DNA of 64,000 nucleotides, from contig MHOT01000010.1 of the NCBI GenBank assembly GCA_001820175.1, positions 8,578 through 72,577 on the forward strand, written 5' to 3'. The notes below the pieces were generated by a model. The model was given only the letters and a program-made list of their open reading frames with translations, did not search any database and was not told the DNA's origin. Positions 3,490 through 55,384 of this stretch are shown here, piece by piece (position 1 is the stretch's first letter; each line of letters starts with the position of its first letter). The stretch is from Candidatus Staskawiczbacteria bacterium RIFCSPHIGHO2_02_FULL_42_22 (GTDB taxonomy: Bacteria > Patescibacteriota > Minisyncoccia > Minisyncoccales > Staskawiczbacteraceae). The position numbers and the translations under genes were made by a program.

Positions 3490-3858
3490 ATGAAAAATAA
3501 AAGCCATAATTTCATCACAATTAAGATAAGTAAATTATTGGCTCCTATTATAAGTTCTCGTGATGTAGCCAATGTATTGGAGGATAAAATAAATGAAACT
3601 GATACAACATCAGTAGTTTTGGATTTTAATAATATTAAATTCGTTTCTCGTTCAGCAACTCACTCATTGCTTGTATTGAAAGAAAAAATTGAAACCAATA
3701 TACCTAGGAGAGAATTGTCTTTCATTAATGCTAATAATGATGTTAAAGAAATGATTCGTACCGTAGCATCTAATAGGGCTTTCCCAAAAAAAGAAACGCC
3801 GGAATTTAATCCAGAAAAAACCGACATCGCTTCGCTATTAGAAGAAGCTGCCTTCTAA
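3490..3858 (+). CDS. STAS-like domain protein (DUF4325-like)
   Basis: SRDVANVLEDKI....VVLDFNNIKFVSRSATHSLL pattern typical of STAS-like DUF4325; sits directly after the GHKL gene. Confidence 0.55.
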   Translation: MKNKSHNFITIKISKLLAPIISSRDVANVLEDKINETDTTSVVLDFNNIKFVSRSATHSLLVLKEKIETNIPRRELSFINANNDVKEMIRTVASNRAFPKKETPEFNPEKTDIASLLEEAAF

Positions 3859-3879
3859 TTTTAGGACATTTTATTAAGG

Positions 3880-4029
3880 AGATGGAAGAATCCCTAAAAC
3901 CCGGCGAAACGTACGACTTTGAAATTTTATTGATTGAACCCAAAGAACACCGAATGAGCTTGAAATTGGTAAAATAATGCAATCCGCGCACCCAAAAAAT
4001 CCGCTTCTGCGGATTTTTTGGTATAATGA
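3880..4029 (+). repeat. Direct repeat, right copy (pseudo rpsA 3' end EMEESLKPGETYDFEILLIEPKEHRMSLKLVK* + terminator + TGGTATAAT)
   Basis: Aligns to 2428-2578; no upstream S1 coding sequence, so it is a gene-end remnant. Confidence 0.85.
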
Positions 4030-4482: not shown

Positions 4483-5361
4483 TTACGAAACCTTCGAAAC
4501 ATTCACTATCTTGGGCGGGCTCCCATGCTTTTTGCCAAAGGAAACCGCTTCAAAGTAGGAGATCACGTCTCCCCTATGAAGTTGGACGATTCCTTCGGCA
4601 TCCGGCGGTTCCATGACGTCGATGCCATGAACCCATGTACTGGAACCGTCGTGGAGCTTGACAATGCCCTGGCCGGTTTGACCGCCAAAGCACGTATACC
4701 AATCCACGACTGCGAAACCACGATCGGGCACCGGCAGTGGCGGATCCAGTTCTTCGGCCACTCTTCTCCATGGCTGAAGTTCAGCGTCTTGCATAAGTTG
4801 CTGAAAATCAGGCACTTCCAAGATCATTTTACGGGATTCAAACGAACCCCACGTATGGTCTTTGGGCCGGCCGACGACACGAACGCCATCCTGGAAAAGC
4901 TTTCCCTTCCAGCGGTACTCACCGTGGAGCCGCCAGGTCTTGCCGTCGTCGTGGGTGATGATCCCTACTTGGAAAAGCCGGATTGAACCATCATGGTCCA
5001 AATGCCAGCAATCCAAACGGTTGGGATTGTCGCTATGCCAGTTGGTCCAGACGTTTTTTCCCGCGCGCTTGACCTGAATGGGATCGTGCATCATGCATAG
5101 ATCATACCGATCCACCAAATCAGGGAAGTCAGTCAAAGCGTTTTTACTGTAACCTCCCTTTTCCTGGCCGACGTTTTTCTGGACGACGACGGTTCTGCCA
5201 TGCTTTGGCAGGAGCACCGCCAGGTAGAACCCTGTGGGGTTGACACCCCTGGGGACCGAAATGATTCCCTGGTCGCTGACTTCAAGATACGTTTCGATCT
5301 TGTTGGCCAGCGAAACCGAAGCCCGAATATTTGGATCAGTAAAAAAGCGAATCGTTTCCAT
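4483..5361 (-). CDS. Hypothetical protein (GC-rich orphan)
   Basis: 292-aa ORF; about 57% GC in a 60-nt sample; no recognised motif. Confidence 0.5.
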   Translation of the reverse strand: METIRFFTDPNIRASVSLANKIETYLEVSDQGIISVPRGVNPTGFYLAVLLPKHGRTVVVQKNVGQEKGGYSKNALTDFPDLVDRYDLCMMHDPIQVKRAGKNVWTNWHSDNPNRLDCWHLDHDGSIRLFQVGIITHDDGKTWRLHGEYRWKGKLFQDGVRVVGRPKDHTWGSFESRKMILEVPDFQQLMQDAELQPWRRVAEELDPPLPVPDRGFAVVDWYTCFGGQTGQGIVKLHDGSSTWVHGIDVMEPPDAEGIVQLHRGDVISYFEAVSFGKKHGSPPKIVNVSKVS

Positions 5362-5484: not shown

Positions 5485-6453
5485 TTATGCCATATATCTG
5501 GGCAGGGCCTCTCTCATTGCCTCCTTAATTCTTGTAATAGAAATTTTAGTGGGCTCAACCCCTTTGGGATTGGCACCGCCATTCAGCAAGGAATTAGTTG
5601 CCCTATCATAGTACCATTCGGAAACACTTTCCAATTTCCCTGGTTTCATTAACTCAATTGGCGGATATTCTATATTTTTTCCCTTTAATTGCAACTCTTC
5701 GTCTCGTAAATAGGCCGCCAGCCATCGTAAATCAACTCTTTTAAATTGCTTAGTTAAAATATTAGTATAACCCGAAGTTTTTCTTTGGCACACCACATCG
5801 GCTTTTAACCCTATCGATGACTTAAGCCATCCGGGCATGCTTACATTATCGGATTCCAGTGCCACGATTTTTAATTTTTTCCCGCGTTGTTTTACCTCAA
5901 AAATTTCTGCCTTTCCAGCCCGTAAATATTTTTCGAATTCTTGAGGTAATTCGCTGGTTCTTTTTCTTTCTTCTAAGTAATGGGCCTCAAGCAACGGAAA
6001 AACGATATCAAGGATTCTTGCCGGACTTTCCGTGGTTTTATTTAAAGAAGAAATTAAACCCGATAATCCAAACGTTCTATCAAGCTGATCAGTAGAAATA
6101 GTCCCGACACCGTGCTTATCGTCTCGCTCAGCATATGCCAGCAATTTTAAAATGGCTGGATCTTCCATAACACCCACGTCCAAAGACACCAATTCAGAAA
6201 GTATTTTTCCTTTTTGGTGATGATCAAGATCGCCTCCGCCTACGTCCAAGCAGATAATACCCTTTTCTTTCAAAGAATCACTGGTTTCACCTTCTTGCAA
6301 TGCCTGACGTATTTCAATTTCCGCATTTTCAATTCCTGGATACTTGGTGCTACCAAATTTTTTTAGCAGGAAAATGCCCAAAATGGTATCGGGGTGTAGG
6401 GAGCTTGGAATAATGATTTTATAGTAATTGGGAACTGTCATATACTTTAACAT
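5485..6453 (-). CDS. MYG1/UPF0160-like metal-dependent hydrolase (tentative)
   Basis: SSLHPDTILGIFLL and CLDVGGGDLDHHQKG resemble the HxDE and DVGG...DHHQ motifs of the MYG1 family. Confidence 0.4.
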   Translation of the reverse strand: MLKYMTVPNYYKIIIPSSLHPDTILGIFLLKKFGSTKYPGIENAEIEIRQALQEGETSDSLKEKGIICLDVGGGDLDHHQKGKILSELVSLDVGVMEDPAILKLLAYAERDDKHGVGTISTDQLDRTFGLSGLISSLNKTTESPARILDIVFPLLEAHYLEERKRTSELPQEFEKYLRAGKAEIFEVKQRGKKLKIVALESDNVSMPGWLKSSIGLKADVVCQRKTSGYTNILTKQFKRVDLRWLAAYLRDEELQLKGKNIEYPPIELMKPGKLESVSEWYYDRATNSLLNGGANPKGVEPTKISITRIKEAMREALPRYMA

Positions 6454-17825: not shown

Positions 17826-17910
17826 GCGCGGGTGGAGAAATTGGTAAACTCGCCAGCTTGAGGTGTTGGTGCCGCAAGGCATGCAGGTTCGACTCCTGTC
17901 CCGCGCACCA
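17826..17910 (+). tRNA. tRNA-Leu, anticodon GAG (CCA encoded)
   Basis: Acceptor GCGCGGG/CCCGCGC, anticodon stem CCAGC/GTTGG, loop TTGAGGT, long variable arm. Confidence 0.8.
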
Positions 17911-17959
17911 CGAATAGAACTTGGTACAATAAAGACACATGTTCTCCTATAAAATTTAC

Positions 17960-18032
17960 GGACGATTAGCTCAATTGGCAGAGCGACTGATTTACACTCA
18001 GTAGGTTGCAGGTTCGAGTCCTGCATCGTCCA
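17960..18032 (+). tRNA. tRNA-Val, anticodon UAC
   Basis: Acceptor GGACGAT/ATCGTCC, anticodon stem ACTGA/TCAGT, loop TTTACAC, T arm GCAGG-TTCGAGT-CCTGC. Confidence 0.85.
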
Positions 18033-18035
18033 CAA

Positions 18036-18162
18036 ATGCAGGAATCGAACCCAAATCACCCCGTGTAGGAAAATATTAAAAACCGAGGGTTTTTAAAGTC
18101 GGGGGTCGGGGTGATTTGAAAAGGTTCTAGCGAAGCGGAGTCCTGCATCGTCCACCCTTTTA
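18036..18162. repeat. Inverted-repeat element built from tRNA-Val T-arm/acceptor-like ends
   Basis: tgcaggaatcgaacccaaatcaccccg ... cggggtgatttgaaaaggttctagcgaagcggagtcctgcatcgtccac; the right end repeats the last 18 nt of the tRNA. Confidence 0.6.
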
Positions 18163-18215
18163 TTGTTAAACCGCTATGTTATAATATAAGCATAATATAA
18201 CTAACAGGTTTGATT

Positions 18216-18878
18216 ATGAAACTTGAAGAAAAAAATTTAGCAATACATTTACGAAAACTAGGATGGTCAATGAATGAAATCAAAAGTAAAATAGGGGTTT
18301 CCAAAAGTAGTGTTAGTTTGTGGGTAAGAGATATACAGCTCACCGATAATCAAAAAATGAAACTGTCCCAAAAAGGACTAACAAAAGAGTCAATTGAAAA
18401 AAGGAGAACAACCAGACTTGGCAGAGAAAACGCACGAAGACAAATTATTGTTGATGGTGCTAAAAAAGAAATACCTGGTTTATCAGACCAAGAGTTAAAG
18501 CTTGTAGGAATAGCTTTATATTGGGGAGAGGGAGGAAAAGCTAATCGTGGGTCGGTCCAATTATCAAACGGAGACCCCCGGATTATACAGTTGATGATGA
18601 AGTTTTTCAAAAGAGTTTGCAAAGTACCTAAAGAAAAATTTAGAGGACACATCCATATACATCCCCACCTTAACGTAAAAAAATCAGAACATTACTGGTC
18701 GTCCATCTCCGGCATTCCGTTAAACCAATTTTATAAAACCTACTCTAAGCCAAATAAAAGTAGTCAAAGCAAAAAGAATTCATTGCCATTTGGAACATTT
18801 GATATTTACGTACACAACACTGAACTATTTTTGAAAATTAAAGGGTGGATCGAAGCTGTATATGATAATGTTATTTAG
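18216..18878 (+). CDS. HTH + LAGLIDADG-like (GLYWGEGGK) endonuclease-like protein
   Basis: N-terminal HTH (LGWSMNEIKSKIGVSKSSVSLWV), LVGIALYWGEGGK motif; paralog at 52223-52912. Confidence 0.45.
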   Translation: MKLEEKNLAIHLRKLGWSMNEIKSKIGVSKSSVSLWVRDIQLTDNQKMKLSQKGLTKESIEKRRTTRLGRENARRQIIVDGAKKEIPGLSDQELKLVGIALYWGEGGKANRGSVQLSNGDPRIIQLMMKFFKRVCKVPKEKFRGHIHIHPHLNVKKSEHYWSSISGIPLNQFYKTYSKPNKSSQSKKNSLPFGTFDIYVHNTELFLKIKGWIEAVYDNVI

Positions 18879-18884
18879 AAATCC

Positions 18885-18956
18885 GCCGTGGTAGCTCATT
18901 GGTAGAGCAGACGCCTGAAGAGCGCCTGGTAGGGAGTTCGATTCTCCCCCGCGGCA
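18885..18956 (+). tRNA. tRNA-Phe, anticodon GAA
   Basis: Acceptor GCCGTGG/CCGCGGC, loop CTGAAGA, T arm GGGAG-TTCGATT-CTCCC; one A-C mispair in the anticodon stem. Confidence 0.7.
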
Positions 18957-19002
18957 CCCTTATTTTATAAGTGGATAGATTTATAAAAGAATTTTAGATA
19001 AT

Positions 19003-19073
19003 GCGGGTATAGCACAATGGTAGTGCATTTGGTTGCCAATCAAAGTACAGGGGTTCGATTCCCCTTACCCGCT
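19003..19073 (+). tRNA. tRNA-Gly, anticodon GCC
   Basis: Acceptor GCGGGTA/TACCCGC, loop TTGCCAA, T arm AGGGG-TTCGATT-CCCCT. Confidence 0.8.
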
Positions 19074-19174
19074 CAAAATTTTCCGAGAAAATTTTGAGCG
19101 AGGTTCGCCCTTTTTGGGCGACCCGCTCTCAATTAAAAAATTTGAGCACAAATTTTTGACCGAGAATTGTACTA

Positions 19175-27357: not shown

Positions 27358-27399
27358 GTACAGTACCTCGCTTTCTTGGTTGTTAAAGGACAGAGCTAG

Positions 27400-27471
27400 T
27401 GTCCTCAGCAGGATTCGAACCTACATTACAAGATCCGGAATCTTGCGTCCTATCCATTGGACGATGAGAGC
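27400..27471 (-). tRNA. tRNA-Arg, anticodon CCG
   Basis: Anticodon stem CAAGA/TCTTG, loop TTCCGGA, T arm GTAGG-TTCGAAT-CCTGC; one C-A mispair in the acceptor stem. Confidence 0.7.
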
Positions 27472-27499
27472 TGTTAAAATAAGAAATTTTTTTCTGAGA

Positions 27500-27585
27500 T
27501 GGTGCCGAGGGAGGGACTTGCACCCTCAAGAGCTTTCACTCGCAGGATTTTAAGTCCTGTGCGTTTTCTATTTCGCCACCCCGGC
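27500..27585 (-). tRNA. tRNA-Leu, anticodon UAA (CCA encoded)
   Basis: Acceptor GCCGGGG/CCTCGGC, stem CAGGA/TCCTG, loop CTTAAAA, long variable arm. Confidence 0.8.
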
Positions 27586-27602
27586 AATAATTTAAAATCC
27601 TG

Positions 27603-27673
27603 AGGCCCGGATGGGAATTGCACCCATGTACACGGTTTTGCAGACCGTTCTCTGGCTACTTGAGTACCGGGCC
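27603..27673 (-). tRNA. tRNA-Cys, anticodon GCA
   Basis: Acceptor GGCCCGG/CCGGGCC, stem ACGGT/ACCGT, loop CTGCAAA, T loop TGCAATT. Confidence 0.8.
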
Positions 27674-44892: not shown

Positions 44893-45174
44893 CAAAAAAG
44901 ACATTCGCAAAATGTCTTTTTTGGTACATGGCCGGCGGACTTTGTCTGTCGAGCCCACTATGGCAGTCGAAGGCGGAGAGTAGTGGATGACGTTAGAACC
45001 TATTTCCAAAGCACCACCGACCGCTTCTTTATTCCAATGCTATCATTGGAAACAGCTAAAATCAATTAGAATTTTTACTATCCTACGCTACTACTCACTA
45101 TTGTTTTGTAATAAAAAGCCCCAGAAGTCCAAAGGACGACTGGGGTCTATTGTTTTTATTATTTTGAAAGGACT

Positions 45175-45402
45175 TTATTTGCTCTGCTGCATTTTTTCCT
45201 TCGCCTCTTTAAGGTAGCCATCGTAAGTGGCAAGTTCAATGGTGCTATACAGAGTTGCGGAAACTTCGGGCAGCTCATTCTTAATCAGAGTGAGCATAGC
45301 AATGAGGCAGGCTTCGGGGTTTTCTCGTGCCTTTTTCATTTTTTCTTCACCAAAGTGTCCCATCACTTCTTCCACCAGTTGAGCTGTCGCTTTGGTAAGC
45401 AT
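45175..45402 (-). CDS. Hypothetical protein (third gene of GC-rich 3-gene operon)
   Basis: 75 aa; followed by - strand terminator ccccag...ctgggg with T-run near 45115-45150. Confidence 0.45.
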   Translation of the reverse strand: MLTKATAQLVEEVMGHFGEEKMKKARENPEACLIAMLTLIKNELPEVSATLYSTIELATYDGYLKEAKEKMQQSK

Positions 45403-45436
45403 AGCGTTCTCCTTTCAGAGTGGGTTGGAAACCTGA

Positions 45437-45823
45437 TTAAACAGGTTTGGTCGGTTTGACCACATTCAACACTAAATCAAACAAGCTCGTAACCCAGATT
45501 TCGTCTTCTCTCATTTCCTCTCTCACTACCCTTTTCCAAAAATTCCTAACAAGGTAGCAAAAGACGAATATCTCCCGATTGTCTAACCACTTACCCGTTT
45601 CAATCGCAATGTCGGGGTAGTATTTTTTAGCAAAGATTTCTTTCTTTTTCGGCCAAGGCTTGTGCCTTGCCATAAACTGGGCTTGTTCCTCTTTGCCCCA
45701 CACCTTGTGGTCATAAAGACGACCGTGCTGGGAGATAATCCAGAAGAGAATGGCTCGCAAAACATCAGAGCACTCTTCGTCAGCCGCTTGCTTGGCGAAC
45801 GAACTCTCAAAGCGGAACATCAC
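45437..45823 (-). CDS. Hypothetical protein (second gene of the operon)
   Basis: 128 aa, no recognised motif. Confidence 0.45.
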   Translation of the reverse strand: MMFRFESSFAKQAADEECSDVLRAILFWIISQHGRLYDHKVWGKEEQAQFMARHKPWPKKKEIFAKKYYPDIAIETGKWLDNREIFVFCYLVRNFWKRVVREEMREDEIWVTSLFDLVLNVVKPTKPV

Positions 45824-45855
45824 CCGAACTACTTGGGTCGCCTCCTCTATGAGTT

Positions 45856-46218
45856 CTACCGGGTTTTACTTTCGTCAAACCATACGCCGTCAACGGAGTA
45901 GGTTGACCAACCCGTGAAAGGAGATTTATACATCTCAATTCTTTCAAGGGCTTCGTCCACAGAGGGCAAGGTGCGACTAAACTTAGGAAAAGTATAGCGA
46001 CTGGGCTTGAACAAATCGGGAAAAGCCTGAAATTCATTTATCAGTTTTTCCACATTGTCTTGCAAATATCTTTTGACCAGATTTTCGTCGTGTCCTTTGC
46101 GTAGAGCATTAAAGATTGCTCCGTAGTAAGCCGCTCTCTTGGGAAAGTAAATTTCAACAAACAATCCTCGTTCGCTTGAATTGAAGAAATAAACCTTTTC
46201 TGGTGCTGGCATACACAC
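45856..46218 (-). CDS. Hypothetical protein (first gene of the operon)
   Basis: 120 aa; upstream on the - strand TTGACT, 17 nt spacer, TATAAG and an AAAGGA RBS. Confidence 0.45.
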   Translation of the reverse strand: MCMPAPEKVYFFNSSERGLFVEIYFPKRAAYYGAIFNALRKGHDENLVKRYLQDNVEKLINEFQAFPDLFKPSRYTFPKFSRTLPSVDEALERIEMYKSPFTGWSTYSVDGVWFDESKTR

Positions 46219-46302
46219 ATCCTTTCTTTGGGAAAAGTGAATTTCACTATGTCAAAGACCTGCCTGTCTTATATCAATTTTATAGCATAAAGTCAAAAAT
46301 GG

Positions 46303-46716
46303 CTATGCGATTTTATTTAAGTCGCCATTTAGAACCATATTGGTCATAGCACTGATTTCATCGGAATAAGAAAGGTATGGCACAGGATTAAGTAAAAATA
46401 CTTTCTTGTTATGGACGTGAGCAAACCCCATTTCCATTAAAGAATTTCCACCGATATAGTTTTTAACACCTTTTTTATCGTAATTTAACACTAAAATAGC
46501 ATCTGAATTAGTTATGAGTTCATAATGCTTACGGATAAAATTATTGGCTATTTTCCTTTCTGCACTTTCAGAACCGCTTACTTTTTCCATTTTGCCTTCC
46601 GCATAGTTATCAGTGCTTTCGGGGATAAAACAAATATGCCCCAGTTTTTCTAATTGGTTTTTTGTGTCCAACATTTCTTTAGCAAAAGCCATACTACCGC
46701 AAATGGTTATTTTCAT
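46303..46716 (-). CDS. Nucleoside 2-deoxyribosyltransferase-like protein
   Basis: ITICGSMAF N-terminus and IGGNSLMEMGFAHVHNKKVFLL C-terminal motif. Confidence 0.5.
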   Translation of the reverse strand: MKITICGSMAFAKEMLDTKNQLEKLGHICFIPESTDNYAEGKMEKVSGSESAERKIANNFIRKHYELITNSDAILVLNYDKKGVKNYIGGNSLMEMGFAHVHNKKVFLLNPVPYLSYSDEISAMTNMVLNGDLNKIA

Positions 46717-46724
46717 AGTTTCTT

Positions 46725-47174
46725 TTAGCTATCCAGAGATTTATTAGCGTAAAATTTTACCGCATTATTGATATTAAATTCTGCTTTTTCTAAATCATCC
46801 TTGCTAAACCAGCGAATATCGTTATGCTCTTCTTTGTTATGGATAAATTTATCTGATTTGGCTTTTGCAAAATACACCAGCCCGATGTGCTTGTGGGTGT
46901 CTGATATTTTATGGATGTCTAAAAAGGATGGTGTGTATAAAAACTTAGTATCTTGTGCTTCAATCGTTGGTTTTTCATTTAATACTTCTATTTCTAATCC
47001 GCATTCTTCCTGCACTTCCCTAAATAGTGCTTGGTCAGTATCTTCATTAAGTTCTATGTGCCCGCCGATTGCCAGCCATCTGTTGAGTTTCTTGTGGTGT
47101 ATCAAAAGAACCTTATCGTTGTAGATGATAAATACATTAACCACAAAATCTATTTGCTCGTGGATGTGTGCCAT
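46725..47174 (-). CDS. NUDIX hydrolase
   Basis: Nudix box GGHIELNEDTDQALFREVQEECGL. Confidence 0.85.
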   Translation of the reverse strand: MAHIHEQIDFVVNVFIIYNDKVLLIHHKKLNRWLAIGGHIELNEDTDQALFREVQEECGLEIEVLNEKPTIEAQDTKFLYTPSFLDIHKISDTHKHIGLVYFAKAKSDKFIHNKEEHNDIRWFSKDDLEKAEFNINNAVKFYANKSLDS

Positions 47175-47223
47175 ATATTGTTTTACTATACTATAACAAA
47201 AATCTCCCGTTTCTGGGAGTTTT

Positions 47224-47446
47224 TATGGAGTAGCACTCTTGGTGCACCCGTAAGCCACCGCCCTTTGCGGAGGGTGGGATTTCCCTCCGGTAAATTTCCT
47301 GACGGAAATTTCCTTCGGGTCTGCCCTCACAGCCCTCGCCTTTCGTCCCGTCCCCAGGCGGGACTCAAACTCGCGCTTTGCTCCGGGCTTCAAATCCCAC
47401 CAATTTAAAATGTTAGCCAGAAAAAATCTGGCTAACATTATTAAAG
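47224..47446. other. GC-rich structured non-coding segment containing a pseudo 3' end of tRNA-Ser
   Basis: gcggagggtgggatttccctccgg (47268-47290) mimics the tRNA-Ser 3' end; ggtgggattt/aaatcccacc long-range pairing; hairpin aatgttagccag...ctggctaacatt. Confidence 0.4.
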
Positions 47447-47531
47447 CGGAGAGGGTGGGATTTGAACCCACGAGACCCTTGCGGGCCATAGTTTTCGAAA
47501 CTATTCCGTTAAGCCGCTCCGGCACCTCTCC
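47447..47531 (-). tRNA. tRNA-Ser, anticodon CGA
   Basis: Acceptor GGAGAGG/CCTCTCC, stem ATAGT/ACTAT, loop TTCGAAA, long variable arm, T arm GTGGG-TTCAAAT-CCCAC. Confidence 0.8.
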
Positions 47532-54507: not shown

Positions 54508-54514
54508 TTTTTTG

Positions 54515-54585
54515 TCGGGGTGCCGAGATTCGAACTCGGACTAAATCGTCCCAAACGATTCGTGCTACCGTTGCACTACACCCCG
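54515..54585 (-). tRNA. tRNA-Pro, anticodon UGG
   Basis: Acceptor CGGGGTG/CACCCCG, stem AATCG/CGATT, loop TTTGGGA. Confidence 0.8.
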
Positions 54586-54687
54586 TATTTTTGAAATCCT
54601 AAATCCTAGATACTAAATCGCTTTAATACTATCTAAAAAAACGTAACTTGTCAAAGGGTAAAATTCGTGATAGGATTCCAGTTGATT

Positions 54688-54764
54688 GTCCCCGTAGCTC
54701 AACTGGATAGAGCGACTCTCTTCTAAGGAGTAGGTTGTGTGTTCGACTCACACCGGGGACACCA
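54688..54764 (+). tRNA. tRNA-Arg, anticodon UCU (CCA encoded)
   Basis: Acceptor GTCCCCG/CGGGGAC, stem ACTCT/GGAGT, loop CTTCTAA. Confidence 0.8.
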
Positions 54765-54827
54765 CCTCAGATTTATTCCACAGATTGATTGATTGCCCTT
54801 CCCTGACTGGCATAATATAATAATCCT

Positions 54828-55325
54828 ATGCCAATAGTTAAATGTAAAAAATGCCAAAAGGAATTTTATGCAAAACCCCATTGGTTAAAAAGGGGGTGGG
54901 GGAAATACTGTTCTCGCAATTGCCAATACAAAGGTCAATTAACAGGAGAATTTGTAAAATGCTACATTTGCAAAAAGAAGACTTGGAAAACCCCGCGCCA
55001 ATTAAAAAACTCCAAAAGTGGTAAATATTTTTGCAATAAATCATGCCAGACCTTATGGCGCAATAGCATCGTTTATGTCGGCCAAAACCACCCTAATTGG
55101 AAAAACGGCGATAGTGTGTACAGGAAAACTTTAAAAAGAAGCCAAAGAAAAGAAGTTTGTTCTTTATGTAAGACAGTGGATAAGCGAATACTAGCAGTTC
55201 ATCATTTGGATAAAAATAGAAAAAATTCCAAATTAGAAAATCTTATATGGCTTTGCCATAATTGTCACTTTTTAGTTCATCACGACCCAGAAACAACAAA
55301 AAAACTTATGGAGGCCATAGTGTAG
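54828..55325 (+). CDS. HNH endonuclease with N-terminal zinc ribbons; 3' end overlaps tRNA-His
   Basis: CKKC..., CSLCK...VHHLDKNRKNSKLENLIWLCHNCHFLVHH. Confidence 0.8.
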   Translation: MPIVKCKKCQKEFYAKPHWLKRGWGKYCSRNCQYKGQLTGEFVKCYICKKKTWKTPRQLKNSKSGKYFCNKSCQTLWRNSIVYVGQNHPNWKNGDSVYRKTLKRSQRKEVCSLCKTVDKRILAVHHLDKNRKNSKLENLIWLCHNCHFLVHHDPETTKKLMEAIV

Positions 55326-55384
55326 CAGCAACACAACACTCTGTGGCAGTGTTATCGGGAGTGCAACTCTCCTTGGCCTCCCCA
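55310..55384 (+). tRNA. tRNA-His, anticodon GUG, with G-1 and encoded CCA
   Basis: 8-bp acceptor GGAGGCCA/TGGCCTCC, stem ACACT/AGTGT, loop CTGTGGC, T loop TGCAACT; the D loop lacks GG, so somewhat atypical. Confidence 0.7.

Follow-up and report, generated by a model that had tools for sequence, protein, structure and literature searches.

The stretch of DNA analysed here (the window) comprises 64,000 nucleotides of Candidatus Staskawiczbacteria bacterium RIFCSPHIGHO2_02_FULL_42_22 (GenBank assembly GCA_001820175.1, contig MHOT01000010.1, positions 8,578 to 72,577), and the element in question is a short minus-strand gene cassette, termed AB-C, in surroundings that include pilM/N/O-like genes. 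Three open reading frames (ORFs), A, B and C, follow one another closely at 46218/46212-45856, 45823/45820-45437 and 45402-45175. An earlier, sequence-only reading of the window had located them at the same positions, and the TTGACT-17-TATAAG promoter, the AAAGGA ribosome-binding site and the terminator that it described are all present. The three-gene operon proposed in that reading is, however, a two-gene unit whose first gene is frameshifted: 46296-45113 constitutes a single transcription unit from promoter to terminator with the two genes AB and C. We are highly confident of this anatomy, as well as of the assignment of the local AB copy as a pseudogene.

As judged from their homologues, ORFs A and B together make up a single gene, AB, of about 259 amino acids (aa). 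The homologues of ORF B include proteins that span the A/B junction unbroken (...SVDGVFFD..G.PIEEATQVVR.MFRFESSF...), and tblastn with the reconstructed full-length protein placed residues 1-113 in the ORF-A frame and residues 114-255 in the ORF-B frame. Upstream of the annotated start the B frame continues without a stop and encodes NPVELIEEATQVVRV. The close relatives P0026, L011 and L029 read ESKTP(V/I)ELIEE via ACC CCG at the position where the window has ACC CG, one C being gone from a CCCC run at 45863-45861. Because an independent assembly of the same strain (L071, 99.7% identical over 12 kb) carries the same 1-nt deletion, the deletion is real and no sequencing error. No slippery heptamer of the type X XXY YYZ was found at 45867-45859, and the first canonical start of ORF B lies downstream of the nearly invariant EEATQVVR strand; therefore, the split AB copy of this genome is most likely a recent pseudogene next to an intact C. 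Intact AB copies of 258-260 aa are present in L008, L011, L013, L016 and L029, and the idea that every copy is broken, which stemmed from a first, word-limited homologue search, was dropped since these copies exist.

It is very unlikely that the split is functional, with A and B working as separate polypeptides or full-length AB being restored by a programmed frameshift. Such a function would fit with the persistence of the split in two assemblies, with the low ratio of non-synonymous to synonymous substitution rates (dN/dS) between the window copy and the intact L011 copy (0.057) and with a GAGGAGG sequence upstream of ORF B. The lack of a slippery heptamer at the site and the loss of the EEATQVVR motif, after which the canonical B start lies, argue otherwise, as do the nearest relatives, which have the extra C and a single reading frame, and other lineages, which are broken elsewhere in the gene by different lesions. 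The window and L071 differ over the 12 kb by 39 substitutions, all of them confined to 232 nt of ORF A (45934-46165). In this stretch L071 is 100% identical to the cassette of L029, a different Staskawiczbacteria genome, and the tract reflects either recombination between cassette copies or a chimeric metagenome assembly.

Table 1. Features of the AB-C cassette and its 3' flank, in positions of the window.
Feature	Position	Strand	Description
Cassette promoter	46268-46296	-	-35 box TTGACT (46296-46291), 17-nt spacer, extended -10 TGaTATAAG (46276-46268; TATAAG at 46273-46268, preceded by TG)
Ribosome-binding site AAAGGA	46220-46225	-	7 nt upstream of ATG 46212
AB pseudogene, 5' part (ORF A)	45856-46212	-	118 aa from ATG; 120 aa in the earlier count (from 46218); predicted to encode strand 1, first helical insert and strand 2; ends at premature TAG created by the frameshift
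Frameshift site	45861-45863	-	CCC run; CCCC in intact relatives
AB pseudogene, 3' part	45437-45865	-	Frame open from 45865 (NPVELIEEATQVVRV...); ORF B (127 aa; 128 aa in the earlier count) starts at GTG/ATG 45823/45820
Gene C	45175-45402	-	Intact, 75 aa, predicted four-helix protein
Intrinsic terminator	45113-45145	-	Hairpin 45145-45119, U run 45117-45113
Conserved element of ~100 nt	44959-45060	-	Just past the terminator; nhmmer E 2.7e-22 in the window

The signals of the transcription unit are kept in related loci. In an alignment of eight loci both the -35 and the -10 box are retained, and the AB proteins of relatives start with MPAPEKVYFF at the ATG equivalent to 46212. The promoter is also the left end of the block that is conserved with relatives, while the terminator (-20.3 kcal/mol, z -4.2), which is conserved as well, is the right end of the block common with L029. 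AB and C are 34 nt apart in the window and -58 to 65 nt apart in at least 24 relatives, with promoter and terminator common to both genes. Between the -10 box and the ribosome-binding site a conserved CTTTGAC(A) box was found in the window (46233-46256) and at the equivalent position in eight related loci. It is kept even in L013, which is devoid of the upstream promoter, and is followed in the window by the palindrome GTGAAATTCAC; this box may be a second promoter or an operator. The ~100-nt element past the terminator is present once in the window and has no notable fold (z -1.5). L029 contains three copies of it (3823-3915, 5125-5231 and 5681-5786) on both sides of the cassette, and in L011 (6351-6459) it travels with the cassette and lies 3' of it, as in the window. 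The opposite strand of this element resembles the first ~25 codons of a gene (MRDVVNNVRT..EYIYIPDL), and the element is never joined to a full-length ORF.

All-against-all clustering of the ORFs at 61 loci identified C as the only conserved neighbour of AB. In at least 24 loci, all of them in or near the candidate-phyla subfamily, C is the next gene downstream of AB; the small ORFs thus do co-occur elsewhere, A and B being one gene there. C has 16 clusters of homologues and is 100% identical to a Candidatus Staskawiczbacteria protein at NCBI. In the candidate phyla the cassettes adjoin different housekeeping genes (fusA, mltG/YceG, rpsR or a His_Phos gene), and the neighbours of AB outside the candidate phyla are mutually unrelated, namely a non-ribosomal peptide synthetase-like reductase, a DUF7133-HEAT-cytochrome c protein, a sigma-54 activator, a class I tRNA synthetase and arginine deiminase.

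When 1.84 billion representative proteins were searched with a profile, 233 AB clusters at 50% identity were retrieved (E<=0.001), and a scan of 185,579 species genomes (one genome per species) with a strict search pattern yielded 54 AB loci, four genomes having two copies. About half of these loci belong to Patescibacteria (Parcubacteria, Saccharibacteria and Peregrinibacteria), the others to Acidobacteriota, Acidimicrobiia, Cyanobacteria, Chloroflexia, Planctomycetota and Bacteroidota. In agreement with the sequence-only reading, which had recognised no domain in the small proteins and no described system, nothing above threshold was obtained from Pfam, NCBIfam, PADLOC and PHROG for the window ORFs A, B and C or for 76 diverse AB members. 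Matches to DUF3574 in four AB members were weak and sub-threshold (best E 0.0018), and PADLOC-DB 2.0 gave only scattered single matches for the 76 members (E>=0.0025). Sequence-profile searches of the PDB with two alignments returned nothing meaningful, no recombinase or transposase domain was detected in AB, C, the 76 family members or the window flanks, and a literature search for a described cassette of this kind retrieved nothing relevant. By these searches AB is an undescribed protein family. Its nearly invariant positions are E19, P23, K24, Q29, G100, S102, Y104, G108, E120, E121, Q124, R127, W206, E233, E235 and W237.

An AlphaFold2 model of AB, calculated from a 76-sequence alignment, reached a predicted local distance difference test score (pLDDT) of 93 and a predicted template modelling score (pTM) of 0.89. 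In the model strand 13-23 is followed by a helical insert of ~70 residues, strands 98-111 and 118-131, a second helical insert of ~90 residues that includes a 43-residue helix, and strand 237-246. As predicted, AB is a ferredoxin-like beta-alpha-beta-beta-alpha-beta core with two large helical inserts. C was modelled as a four-helix protein (pLDDT 82). The structure comparison that the sequence-only reading had proposed gave no Foldseek match at E<=0.001 in PDB or BFVD for AB, nor any PDB match or Foldseek match at E<=0.001 for C. Partial matches of AB cover the sheet only and include CutA (Foldseek probability 0.99, target template modelling score (TM) 0.47), the phage S-adenosylmethionine (SAM) lyase 6zm9 (probability 0.85, E 0.039) and small, uncharacterised T7-like phage proteins (probability 1.0, target TM 0.57, best E 0.0018).

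The predicted core of AB has the same beta-alpha-beta-beta-alpha-beta order as the GlnB-like trimeric ferredoxin-fold proteins CutA, PII and the SAM lyase Svi3-3. SAM lyases are trimeric ferredoxin-like enzymes with few conserved residues (Gly, Tyr, Glu and Gln-Glu), and G56, Y58, E69, Q104 and E105 are the catalytic residues of Svi3-3 (PMC7877911). The conserved Gly, Tyr, Glu and Gln on the sheet of AB recall these lyase residues by residue type, not by mapped position. This protein group differs from AB in that all matches have E >0.001 and a query TM of <=0.27, in that it has no counterpart to the ~70- and ~90-residue helical inserts, and in that AB has no sequence-profile match to any PDB chain. 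The modelled resemblance to SAM lyases is a lead.

AB is under strong purifying selection, with a pairwise dN/dS of 0.05-0.09 and saturated dS; for C, values of 0.08-0.26 were obtained. Nevertheless, about a quarter to a third of the candidate-phyla AB copies are independently broken, with C intact in most of the broken loci. These alleles carry frameshifts (the window, L002 and L042), nonsense mutations (L005, L007, L022, L032 and L040) or a loss of the 5' part (L006 and L025); a "frameshift" in L014 and a disruption in L021 were excluded as artefacts of N runs. An unbiased genome set contains 23 candidate-phyla copies, 5 of them broken, versus none broken among ~27 copies elsewhere. Since comparisons of broken with intact copies yield dN/dS values as low as those of intact pairs, the AB lesions are recent. 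Three AB copies contain an in-frame TAG, two of them at the codon of the nearly invariant Gln (Q29). The latter two were observed in unrelated genomes (codon 27 in L022, codon 23 in L032) and look like independent CAG-to-TAG nonsense mutations. Stop-codon reassignment was ruled out, as the neighbours are long standard-code ORFs with TAG stops.

Comparison of the window with its relatives suggests that the cassette was inserted as a unit. At ~84% nucleotide identity only 46257-45113 is common to the window and L029, and only 46299-44970 to the window and L011. Direct repeats of host sequence (45-128 nt, 83-100% identical) bracket the cassette in 6 of 31 candidate-phyla loci, as compared to 10 of 402 random 1.15-kb segments (2.5%; Fisher p = 4e-4); a "flanking repeat" in L024 was left out of the count, as it consists of two tRNA genes. 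The repeated sequences are the 5' end of a His_Phos gene in L002 (90 nt, 87% identical, seen in 13 contigs from several samples), the 3' end of mltG/YceG in L005 (61 nt, 85%), the 3' end of fusA in L018 (128 nt, 87.5%), the terminator of the upstream gene in L026 (46 nt, 100%) and the overlapping 3' ends of rpsR and a convergent TPR gene in L033 (45 nt, 89%); in L029 a 70-nt sequence in three copies (83%) is related to window 45060-44959. The insert invariably begins 0-19 nt upstream of the -35 box and ends shortly past the terminator, and no conserved motif, core or terminal inverted repeat was found at these junctions. Between the copies of the three coding repeats, 30 codon differences are synonymous and 4 non-synonymous (p 0.0015 for so few non-synonymous changes, if half of all changes fell on a neutrally decaying copy). 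This excess indicates that both repeat copies evolved inside working genes, which points to an import of the cassette from a diverged genome with a gene end attached, or to a later allelic replacement of the host gene. On this evidence from relatives, rather than from the window locus itself, it is somewhat probable that AB-C is an inserted accessory cassette.

The reading that we favour overall, tentatively and at a little less than even confidence, is that of an inserted accessory module of effector and neutraliser which has decayed in this genome. The cassette would enter as accessory DNA beside varied housekeeping genes, and the duplicated gene end that brackets the insert would leave the neighbouring gene intact. 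AB would be a costly or conditionally useful effector; from the invariant Glu, Lys, Arg, Ser and Tyr residues placed on the sheet by the model it is probably an enzyme. C would neutralise or regulate AB, as in a toxin-first toxin-antitoxin or conflict module. The pairing of the genes, their patchiness, the constraint and the loss of AB suggest these roles, although the assignment of AB as effector and C as neutraliser or regulator is, taken by itself, doubtful. An effector with a neutraliser would explain why strong long-term constraint goes along with frequent recent knock-outs of AB and retention of C. Several observations weigh against an inserted effector module. The window copy has no flanking duplication, and a search via the NDT-like gene (see below) retrieved no syntenic site without the cassette for the window locus. 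Varied context alone is weak evidence because candidate-phyla genomes are poorly syntenic in general, and the NDT-like gene shows the same isolated-gene pattern. In other phyla AB lacks C and stands in locally stable synteny within clades, as an ordinary chromosomal gene would. No AB match was found in IMG/VR or in phage and plasmid collections, AB resembles no known toxin, and the C model has no recognisable DNA-binding or antitoxin fold. Finally, saturated dS suits an old, largely vertical inheritance equally as well as mobility.

AB could instead be an ordinary enzyme, inherited vertically and serving metabolism or housekeeping, and C, restricted to the candidate phyla, its small subunit or a chaperone, the varied contexts being due to poor synteny and the broken copies to genome reduction or dispensability in some habitats. 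We regard this as unlikely, if a serious contender: the very strong purifying selection with saturated dS, the stable synteny outside the candidate phyla, the housekeeping neighbours, the absence of AB from the phage, plasmid and viral collections searched and the lack of defence-model matches are all in its favour. It is hard to reconcile with the patchiness and rarity of AB in the strict scan (54 loci in 185,579 species genomes), the four genomes with two copies, the independent knock-out of 5 of the 23 candidate-phyla copies, the duplicated host gene ends that flank the cassette far above chance, and the confinement of similarity to the cassette between unrelated flanks at ~84% nucleotide identity. 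Alternatively, AB-C might integrate autonomously as a minimal element, AB being a recombinase of new fold, C an excisionase-like helper and the duplicated gene ends attL and attR, with a surrogate gene end supplied by the element as in phage 21 and e14 at icd; we consider this improbable. The bracketing of 1.15-1.47-kb units that hold AB and C only by 45-128-nt repeats of host gene termini, the coding-type conservation of both repeat copies (30 synonymous to 4 non-synonymous), the invariant Ser, Tyr, Arg, Lys and Glu positions of AB and the L071 tract with its 100% identity to the L029 cassette would all be in line with such an element. Nonetheless, the sequence and length of the repeats differ at every locus, the junctions have no conserved core or terminal inverted repeats, and proteins that are 75-80% identical would need unrelated target sites. 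Moreover, there are no multi-copy bursts, the members outside the candidate phyla are single, syntenic and without C, and no recombinase or transposase similarity was found in Pfam, NCBIfam or PDB.

More speculatively, and with a similarly small chance of being correct, AB-C might be a minimal mobile cassette of ~1.2 kb that spreads between candidate-phyla bacteria by an undescribed route or, independently of this, AB might be a chromosomal relative of the phage SAM lyases, that is, a metabolite-depleting effector checked by C. For the mobile cassette, either AB would act as a new-fold recombinase, or a circular promoter-to-terminator unit would undergo Campbell-type insertion-duplication after natural uptake of DNA; landing beside housekeeping genes would then duplicate 45-128 nt of their ends, so that the host gene survives.

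The sequence-only reading had seen the proposed three-gene operon, together with the adjoining NDT-like (nucleoside 2-deoxyribosyltransferase-like) and NUDIX genes, as part of a nucleotide-modifying accessory or conflict island at tRNA-Ser. The NUDIX gene was confirmed by a PF00293 match (E 1.7e-16), and tRNA-Ser(CGA) is located at 47447-47531 on the same strand as described; the identification of the NDT-like gene rests on a sub-threshold PF05014 match (E 0.003, 18 bits versus a cut-off of 28.8). The cassette is GC-rich (GC content 0.433) compared to the NDT-like and NUDIX genes (0.34-0.36), but not compared to the window, which has a mean of 0.412 and in which 30% of the segments of equal size are at least as GC-rich. 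A conflict island of this composition is scarcely credible. The genes are on the same strand and closely spaced with no terminator between the NDT-like gene and the cassette, the NUDIX gene weakly matches the PADLOC candidate PDC-S07, and both the NUDIX and the NDT gene turn up elsewhere in unrelated surroundings. However, AB or C is found at none of 80 NDT-like loci, which, by the criterion of the sequence-only reading itself, refutes the functional link to NUDIX and NDT. In the closest NDT-like metagenome loci (84-87% nucleotide identity) the resemblance to the window breaks off precisely at the NDT stop codon. Conversely, among ~60 AB loci a NUDIX or NDT gene is nearby only in the same-strain assembly L071, and the cassette has its own promoter and terminator. 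PADLOC reported no system: A, B, C and the NDT-like protein had no match, and that of the NUDIX protein to PDC-S07 was generic. As to the island boundary proposed at tRNA-Ser, the "pseudo 3' end copy" of the tRNA does exist as an exact 13-nt repeat (47270-47282 = 47451-47463, 181 nt apart), yet this is the only tRNA-derived repeat and marks no island boundary; neither an integrase nor an island-scale repeat was found there. With 15 tRNA genes in 64 kb, adjacency to a tRNA gene is unremarkable and its proximity therefore carries little information here. The AB-C unit is not functionally tied to the adjoining NUDIX, NDT-like or tRNA genes. What holds of the proposed accessory character is the part that concerns the cassette, namely its varied contexts, the flanking host duplications and the repeated inactivation, and not the part that concerns NUDIX, NDT and tRNA.

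Some further observations were made in these surroundings. The NDT-like gene (46303-46716) is itself an isolated unit: at 84-85% nucleotide identity it is the only gene common to the window and L072, L073, L075 and L077, with unrelated flanks. In L077 it is bracketed, together with a gene for an 86-aa membrane protein, by a 126-nt perfect direct repeat whose second copy is at the contig end, and tandem NDT-like paralogues are present in many genomes. Several of the tRNA genes of the window form clusters at 17826-19074, 27399-27673 and 54514-55384. The minus-strand intergenic region 47200-47445, from tRNA-Ser to the NUDIX gene, has a GC content of 0.57 and a very strong predicted fold (-109.6 kcal/mol, z -6.5) with a hairpin immediately following the tRNA, a ~130-nt closed multi-stem domain (47401-47272) and an intrinsic terminator (47219-47204). 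The closing stem of this domain reuses the T-arm sequence of the tRNA, which is the 13-nt repeat, and only the last ~80 nt of the region are conserved in L074. Searches against Rfam at gathering and at permissive thresholds returned tRNAs only and no family for 47200-47445, which is a candidate for an unannotated small RNA.

Many of the proteins encoded by the small genomes of Patescibacteria have no known function, and here three anonymous ORFs could be turned into one definable, widespread family with a confident model and a small partner, which makes them a target for biochemistry. The strong constraint on AB, its repeated knock-out and the insertion next to essential genes whose ends are duplicated would suggest a conflict or addiction module, and AB-C may point to an unrecognised route by which the naturally DNA-importing bacteria of the candidate phyla gain single transcription units. 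For annotators two cautions arise: adjacent small ORFs in these genomes can be halves of a frameshifted gene, and proximity to NUDIX, NDT or tRNA genes is no evidence of a common system.

No described system matches AB-C, a probable accessory module of two genes that is based on an undescribed protein family. Like the gene cassettes of integrons, it is a single- or two-gene unit found in many contexts; unlike these, it brings its own promoter and terminator along, lacks both an attC-like site and a nearby integron integrase, and adjoins housekeeping genes instead of an array. Integrative elements that supply a surrogate end of their target gene are exemplified by phage 21 and e14 at icd and by tRNA-targeting islands. 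AB-C likewise can lie between imperfect direct repeats (83-100% identical) that stem from the adjacent gene's 3' or 5' end, and at such AB-C loci, too, the flanking gene is intact and the displaced copy still coding-like. It differs from such elements in that the unit measures only 1.15-1.47 kb and has no recognisable integrase, and in that its repeats vary per locus, share no conserved att core and are missing at the window copy. Toxin-first type II toxin-antitoxin modules include higBA, hicAB and darTG. AB and C have no sequence or fold similarity to known toxins or antitoxins, C has no recognisable DNA-binding domain, and AB is large for such a toxin (259 aa) and has no partner gene outside the candidate phyla. 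Nevertheless, like these modules AB-C consists of two adjacent co-directional genes, 15-65 nt apart, with their own promoter and terminator, has a patchy distribution with occasional second copies, occupies scattered chromosomal sites, and shows repeated inactivation of the larger gene with the small downstream gene kept.

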